DNA from: Felis catus
Taxonomy: Eukaryota
Length of the DNA: 64,000 nucleotides
Direction of reading: 5' to 3'
NCBI RefSeq assembly: GCF_018350175.1
Contig: NC_058368.1
Coordinates: forward strand, 15,626,001 to 15,690,000
The translations under genes were made by a program, and so were the position numbers. Shown one piece after another: positions 13,942-14,075 of this stretch (within the stretch, counting starts at the first letter, position 1; every line of letters starts with the position of its first letter). Under the pieces are notes generated by a model. That model did no database searches. It saw nothing but the letters and a program-made list of their open reading frames with translations, and was not told the DNA's origin.

Positions 13942-13967
13942 CTGTAAAGCAAGAAGAGAGCCAAGAG

Positions 13968-14075
13968 TGAGGATGTGGAGAAATGGAAACCCTCATGTAC
14001 TGTTGGTGGGAATGCAAACTGGTGCAGCCGCTCTGGAAAACAGTGTGGAGGTTCCTCAAAAAATTAAAAATAGAT
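13968..14075 (+). mobile_element. 5' part of an older, 5'-truncated L1 (host of the full-length L1)
   Basis: tgaggatgtggagaaatggaaaccctcatgtactgttggtgggaatgcaaactggtgcagccgctctgg... is L1 ORF2 3' sequence; it continues seamlessly at 20012; preceded by TSD agagccaagag (13957-13967). Confidence 0.92.

Follow-up and report, generated by a model that had tools for sequence, protein, structure and literature searches.

A candidate L1-derived branch point upstream of the last coding exon of SMAD9 in Felis catus

SMAD9 and two nested L1 elements in its last intron

The window, which is the whole 64,000-nucleotide stretch of Felis catus DNA analysed in this study, contains a minus-strand gene that was identified as SMAD9. 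The translation of its MH1 exon was identical to the human SMAD9 MH1 domain (PDB 6fzt) at 136 of 137 residues and scored 316.7 bits, compared with 286 bits against the SMAD5 MH1 and 278.5 bits against the SMAD1 MH1. The gene was thus closest to SMAD9 in its MH1 domain and also ended in the C-terminal SSVS motif, and it was assigned on both grounds. Six coding exons were open, at approximately 45.6, 38.3, 34.2, 32.6, 25.7, and 13.9 kb of the window, comprising the MH1 exon, two linker exons (one of which reads DTPPPPYHAT...), and three MH2 exons. The short linker exon DTPPPPYHATEAPGTQNGRPVDATADSHLVLSVP..., at positions 34150-34260 of the minus strand, was present and open; we take it to be the exon that separates the long and short isoforms of human SMAD9. 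The features at the 3' end of the gene are as follows.

25507-25763, minus strand: penultimate SMAD9 coding exon, from sequence and translation
25505-25506, minus strand: GT donor of the last intron, reading GTAAG from 25506
13943-13942, minus strand: AG of the last-exon acceptor, from sequence, preceded by ...gctttac; the exon starts at 13941
13798-13941, minus strand: coding part of the last exon by translation, GWGAEYHRQ...PISSVS, with the C-terminal end NPISSVS and the stop codon TAA at 13800-13798

From the open reading frame, we infer that position 25507 is spliced to position 13941. The last exon is required for a functional SMAD9 protein.

Two L1 elements, one nested within the other, were found in the last intron close to this acceptor. 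Both are antisense to SMAD9, and their parts are listed below.

13957-13967, plus strand: left copy of the target-site duplication AGAGCCAAGAG, identical to the right copy at 11 of 11 positions
13968-14075, plus strand: 5'-side part of the outer L1, from the 3' region of ORF2, 5'-truncated and antisense to SMAD9, recognized by its match to genomic L1 copies
14064-14075 and 20000-20011, plus strand: the two copies of the duplication TTAAAAATAGAT made by the inner L1, 12 bp long, or up to 18 bp when the flanking A's are counted
14076-19999 (end approximate), plus strand: inner, full-length, younger L1, nested in the outer L1, antisense to SMAD9 and starting 135 nt upstream of the acceptor
20000-20634, plus strand: 3' part of the outer L1, opening with the duplicated target of the inner L1 and containing the end of ORF2, the 3' UTR, and an A8 tail (20625-20632) followed by CT
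20635-20645, strand not assigned: right copy of the target-site duplication AGAGCCAAGAG, identical to the left copy at 11 of 11 positions

The outer L1 begins at 13968, 26 nt into the intron from the exon start at 13941, and continues from 20012 after the interruption. It has a total length of 731 bp and starts inside ORF2. The exact flanking duplication, the homology to ORF2 and the 3' UTR, the poly(A) tail, and the 5' truncation together identify it as an L1 insertion. The L1 endonuclease target consensus resembles TTTT/AA at the poly(A) side. The target of the inner L1, AAAAATTAAAAATAGAT, is typical; the site entered by the outer L1 is not A-rich, with a tail followed by CT and a duplication that opens with AGAG.

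The ages of the two elements were estimated solely from pairwise identities between L1 copies. In the 2.43-Gb genome to which the window belongs, positions 13969-14074 of the outer L1 (106 nt) were 95-98% identical to the 39 other copies scored, which came from 1262-1599 first-look candidates, and differed from the best copies at two to four positions. The 3' 624 nt were 86-89% identical to 39 scored copies, that is, at most 89%. We estimate that the outer L1 has decayed by a few per cent since its insertion. The mammalian neutral rate is approximately 2e-9 per year, and at this rate the outer L1 may be roughly 10-25 million years old, a figure to be read as an order of magnitude only. The last 691 nt of the inner L1 were 98-99% identical to 39 scored copies, indicating that this element is young, and it may be polymorphic within the species. 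Its ORF2 is broken into open frames of 466 and 515 amino acids. The inner L1 also falls well within the 2-kb zone reported to be depleted of full-length LINEs in human and mouse.

The acceptor-side segment of the outer L1 differs from most of its close copies at two positions, 13987 and 13996 of the plus strand, which read TGGAAACC versus TGGGAACC and CTCATGT versus CTCTTGT, respectively. On the transcript strand, the change at 13987 adds one more U to a pyrimidine-rich stretch, and the change at 13996 abolishes one of two adjoining AGs near -53. Two private changes are too few for a selection argument. The idea that selection had lowered the divergence of this segment was also dropped, since the segment is a conserved region of ORF2 and the copies had been picked by their match to it.

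Candidate branch sites before and after the insertion

Branch sites were scored with the matrix in Table 4 of Gao et al. 2008 (PMC2367711), which is based on 181 lariat-mapped clones or sites from 41 human housekeeping-gene introns. The intron composition of SMAD9 itself served as background, and every position was scored. The empty site was rebuilt by joining the sequence across the insertion by coordinates. Three features were relevant to this comparison.

13942-13967, minus strand: acceptor-proximal 26 nt of the original intron that were retained, containing the AG, the pyrimidine tract, and the left duplication copy
13967-13971, minus strand: candidate branch-point motif CTCAC, with its A at 13968 (-27); bases -5 to 0 of the site come from the L1 and bases +1 to +3 from the target-site duplication
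20666-20670, minus strand: CTGAC, the candidate for the ancestral branch point, now displaced; its A, at 20667, is at -48 in the computed empty site, and 6.7 kb currently separate it from the acceptor

The retained 26 nt contain a single A, at -4, and 19 of the 22 positions from -26 to -5 are pyrimidines. Across the junction, the transcript strand reads ...ggtttccatttctccacatcCTCAC / tcttggctctcttcttgctttacAG / G. The CTCAC site at -27 scored 8.23 bits and was the top candidate between -110 and -8. The next candidates between -50 and -18 were located at -33 (4.81 bits), -35 (4.27 bits), and -43 (4.06 bits), all of them L1 adenosines and all at least 3.4 bits behind the site at -27. A U at -14, a non-A site within the retained 26 nt, scored 2.56 bits. 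The first AG upstream of the acceptor was found at -51, with further AGs at -59, -78, and beyond, and none between the A at -27 and the acceptor; the AG-exclusion zone therefore fits a branch site at -27. In human introns, branch points have a median position of -26, with 83% of them at -34 to -21, and the pyrimidine tract lies at +4 to +24 from the branch point (Gao et al., PMC2367711). CTCAC is itself attested as a branch sequence in the disease-mutation table of the same paper, as GGCTCAC in ITGB4 intron 31. The yUnAy motif, the distance to the acceptor, the downstream pyrimidine tract, and the absence of an intervening AG are thus combined in CTCAC at -27. By a hand count, CUCAC pairs with the U2 GUAGUA box (as quoted in PMC2367711) at four of six positions, and the old CUGAC at three plus two wobble positions. 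Folding of the RNA from -120 to +20 around the acceptor gave a z score of -0.55, with no significant structure able to bridge a distance.

In the rebuilt empty site, an A-free tract of 27 nt extends from -5 to -32, and the first full yTnAy motif is CTGAC at -48 (ggctgAcca), which scored 4.67 bits, the best value within -50. Further upstream, CTCAC at -64 (gtctcAcgc) scored 7.03 bits and precedes AGs at -53 and -40. The displaced intron contains, at positions 20672-20690 of the minus strand, another acceptor-like unit, tctcAcgcctctgcAG, which includes the CTCAC at -64 and a CAG ending at -53; this unit lies just upstream of CTGAC at -48, and the empty site also has an AAG ending at -40. The CTCAC at -64 and the decoy AGs upstream of or near CTGAC at -48 suggest that the ancestral 3' end had an unusual distal-branch-point arrangement with decoy AGs. 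The geometry given in the original prediction was reproduced in every coordinate: an outer L1 beginning at 13968, 26 nt from the exon; an A at 13968 that is both the L1 junction base and the A of CTCAC at -27; an empty site lacking yTnAy before approximately -48; and a last exon carrying the SSVS motif, whose translation ends in ...PISSVS followed by the stop.

Metagenome contigs were also scanned, with a degenerate pattern for the first 21 codons of the last exon. The scan gave at least 116 stretches (L035-L150) encoding the exact 21-residue BMP R-SMAD peptide. When compared by BLAST with the exon and 3' UTR and with the upstream intron, these stretches were 78-84% identical in DNA to the exon of the window, in its coding part only. 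No intron match and no mammalian SMAD9 orthologue was found among the 116 stretches, which came from distant animals only, and the scan was therefore uninformative on the empty site. Many of the contigs were, by name, from marine or invertebrate-associated samples, and they presumably represent DNA of animal hosts.

Since the retained 26 nt contain no A except that at -4, L1-derived sequence must now contain the branch point. That the branch point would be L1-derived, if the last exon is spliced at all, is close to certain on this reasoning, and L1 sequence would accordingly have been exapted as a splicing signal, a conclusion reached by elimination from the retained 26 nt. We propose that a 731-bp 5'-truncated L1 entered the intron antisense to SMAD9 by target-primed reverse transcription, 26 nt upstream of the last-exon acceptor, and that a young full-length L1 was later inserted into it. 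The first insertion would have cut off the original branch region (CTGAC at -48), now 6.7 kb away behind many AGs, from the pyrimidine tract and the acceptor. U2 snRNP would then select a branch site in L1-derived sequence, most likely the A at 13968 in CUCAC, to which the L1 would contribute ucc-U-c-A and the duplicated target cuc. On the basis of motif and position, the A at -27 is probably the main branch site.

Origin of the junction adenosine and alternative readings

The base homologous to 13968 was determined in 30 distinct L1 loci. Seven loci had T, 8-9 had C, and 14-15 had A, one locus being ambiguous by a one-base offset and aligned as C elsewhere; the nested inner L1 carries A at this position. 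Of these variants, T alone reads as A on the transcript strand. The A at the junction is thus compatible with templated L1 sequence, and it could equally stem from post-insertion C-to-T decay of a CpG (CGAGG) or from an untemplated base. Copies carrying T, C, or A were alike in their identity to the 3' part of the outer L1 (83.1, 82.4, and 82.8%, respectively), giving no subfamily signal. L010, at G000:C1:150067215-150067321, was the copy with the highest identity (98%) to the outer L1 over its first 106 nt. It leaves L1 sequence at the same base as the outer L1 (tGAGGATG...) and is a T case at a non-L1 junction. Approximately 150 nt from it, part of the same ORF2 region occurs again in inverted orientation, so that L010 resembles a 5'-inverted insertion of the twin-priming type. 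The breakpoint that it has in common with the outer L1 is probably a coincidence.

The quality of the -27 site was compared with what an L1 edge would be expected to offer. All 5785 possible truncation points of an antisense L1, for which the inner L1 stood in, were abutted in turn to the retained 26 nt. A yTnAy motif with its A at -34 to -27 was generated at 19% of the simulated junctions, and 43% had a site of at least 4 bits between -50 and -21. Sites of at least 8.23 bits occurred at 0.3% of the junctions between -34 and -21 and at 0.5% between -50 and -21, and of 5000 trials with random sequence of intron composition, 0.1% attained 8.23 bits. The comparison is post hoc because the site had been selected for its motif. 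The best sites between -60 and -15 in three other SMAD9 introns scored 6.57 (at -26), 2.67, and 4.36 bits. The backup sites at -33, -35, and -43 are therefore comparable to the ancestral site at -48 and match or beat the best sites of two of these three introns. The observed -27 site is unusually good, and an adequate site at an L1 edge is common.

These values bear directly on the reading in which the branch point is L1-derived but is not, or not only, the A at -27, with one or more of the adenosines at -33, -35, and -43 of the pyrimidine-rich antisense L1 strand in use and CTCAC as a lucky extra that would not account for the survival of the insertion. We consider this reading possible, though its chances are well below even. 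Besides the backup scores, which equal that of the displaced CTGAC, and the 43% of simulated antisense junctions with a site of at least 4 bits, it draws on the findings that several branch sites per intron are common (14-15 of 41 introns), that mammalian sites are degenerate, and that neighbouring cryptic A's take over once a branch A is lost (Gao et al., PMC2367711). A source L1 with C or A at the junction position, as in 22-24 of the 30 copies, would moreover mean that the A at -27 arose only later. However, all three backup sites lack a U at -2, which is the most informative position after the branch A (74.6%), and the downstream site tends to be favoured where several exist (Gao et al., PMC2367711). 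They also trail the -27 site in score by the difference given above.

A far smaller probability attaches to a non-adenosine branch nucleotide in the retained 26 nt or to a far-distal branch point, either deep in the L1s or at the old CTGAC 6.7 kb away; we regard both as highly improbable. Non-A branch points made up 7.7% of the 181 sites of Gao et al. (PMC2367711), and the U at -14 does have a positive score, but this position is nearer to the acceptor than the usual branch range. Branch points in distal positions are known and may be conserved (PMC5378181). In this intron, however, the AGs at -51, -59, -78, and beyond break the AG-exclusion zone, an AG is used when it lies downstream of a branch point by more than approximately 8-12 nt (PMC7969005), and a distal branch point would be expected to select one of them; the fold around the acceptor also showed no significant bridging structure.

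Whether the -27 A also accounts for the survival of the insertion is a separate matter. The original prediction had held that the insertion was tolerated because the L1 junction built a replacement branch point for an essential exon. Its branch-point reading stood as regards the geometry, the 6.7-kb displacement, the L1-derived site by elimination, and CTCAC at -27 as the best site (8.23 versus 4.81 bits), but the causal step was not borne out. L1 adenosines other than the -27 A score like the ancestral site at -48, and roughly 43% of junctions would offer at least 4 bits. The claim of tolerance is weakened because the backups score like ancestral and other-intron sites, because cryptic sites take over readily, and because Smad8 is listed as dispensable in mouse development. 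The word essential was likewise an overstatement: according to PMC4232216, mouse development can proceed in the absence of Smad8 (Smad8/9), whose only listed phenotype is pulmonary vascular. In favour of the claim are the depletion of LINEs near exons (PMC3088655) and the less harmful antisense orientation of both L1s. Overall, we find it doubtful that the insertion survived because of the A at -27.

An insertion that was neutral to mildly harmful, and was not rescued by any new site, would also account for the present sequence. SMAD9 would in this case be partly redundant with SMAD1/5 and would tolerate reduced or altered splicing of its last exon, and the L1 would have drifted to fixation. 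The mild mouse phenotype (PMC4232216) agrees with such a course, as do the under-represented yet present LINEs within 50-100 bp of human and mouse exons (PMC3088655) and the tolerance of a second, full-length L1 135 nt from the acceptor. Nevertheless, the six coding exons are still open and the MH1 exon retains its near identity to human SMAD9 despite the several per cent divergence of the outer L1, which argues for continued SMAD9 function. We judge a neutral or harmful course to be rather improbable as an explanation of its own, and it is compatible with the main explanation, in which an L1-derived branch site, probably the A at -27, is used.

A further proposal goes beyond the use of the -27 site. 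The L1 may have turned an unusual distal-branch-point acceptor into a canonical one with a near-optimal site at -27, and may have persisted only since its copy carried the T variant (7 of 30) or gained it by CpG decay. We hold this to be unlikely. If it were true generally, transposons inserted between a branch point and its acceptor would persist solely in cases where a new branch site comes with their edge, and such a survivorship filter would be measurable genome-wide. If the -27 site is borne out by lariat mapping, SMAD9 would be a naturally occurring instance of a retrotransposon replacing the branch point that served a conserved terminal coding exon and then being retained. It would show branch-point turnover in one step and would explain how some insertions survive in an acceptor-side zone that is usually purged of transposons. 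The case leaves the general understanding of splicing and of L1 unchanged.

Comparison with known systems

Branch points supplied by transposons have been described before, for the most part in reporter constructs and for exons that are new or pathogenic. The SMAD9 L1 case was not found in the literature searched, a search that was not exhaustive for similar natural cases. The name SMAD9 was absent from the searched supplementary files of Pineda and Bradley 2018 and of Mercer et al. 2015; two files of each paper lay outside the search, and a mapped human site may therefore exist in them.

The SMAD9 L1s can be placed within the distribution of LINEs around exons. Zhang, Romanish and Mager 2011 (PMC3088655) reported a depletion of LINEs within 50 bp of exons in human and 100 bp in mouse, and of full-length LINEs within 2 kb. 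The antisense orientation is favoured among surviving intronic LINEs and is considered less harmful, and only two of the seven full-length human L1s within 20 bp of exons are near acceptors (PMC3088655). The two SMAD9 L1s are antisense survivors inside the hazardous zones defined there. That study is statistical and leaves aside the question of which splicing signal surviving insertions provide.

Cryptic branch-point activation (PMC2367711) resembles the SMAD9 case in that a nearby suitable A is picked after the authentic branch site has been lost. In the cases described there, the loss is due to point mutation or deletion, whereas in SMAD9 it would be due to a 6.7-kb displacement, with a substitute taken from foreign sequence.

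Two pseudoexons described in PMC7951965 come close to the SMAD9 site in structure. In one, an L1MD3 fragment supplies the 5' portion of the branch sequence that is predicted, and in the other, an AluY supplies the branch sequence, the pyrimidine tract, and the acceptor. The SMAD9 site is similar in being a chimeric branch motif, with a LINE edge as its 5' part and non-transposon sequence as the rest (tcctcA/ctc). These pseudoexon cases create new pathogenic exons, whereas in SMAD9 an exon that already existed and is conserved would have its branch point replaced by the transposon.

OGDH minigenes provide a further parallel. In Kralovicova et al. 2021 (PMC7969005), MIR elements were introduced into OGDH intron 4a, in the interval that separates distant branch points from the acceptor. 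New branch points were mapped within these elements, and the authors concluded that branch-point competitors can be brought in or removed by transposons. As proposed for SMAD9, new sites at the canonical distance come from a transposon that lies between the acceptor and its distant branch point, and the OGDH sites were sequenced from lariats (PMC7969005). The OGDH system is experimental, uses SINE fragments in a reporter, and disturbs regulated splicing (PMC7969005). In contrast, the SMAD9 L1 is a natural element in a genome assembly, beside a conserved terminal coding exon, and the use of its site is predicted from sequence. SMAD9 would stand out in that a natural insertion takes the place of such an exon's branch point instead of competing with it.
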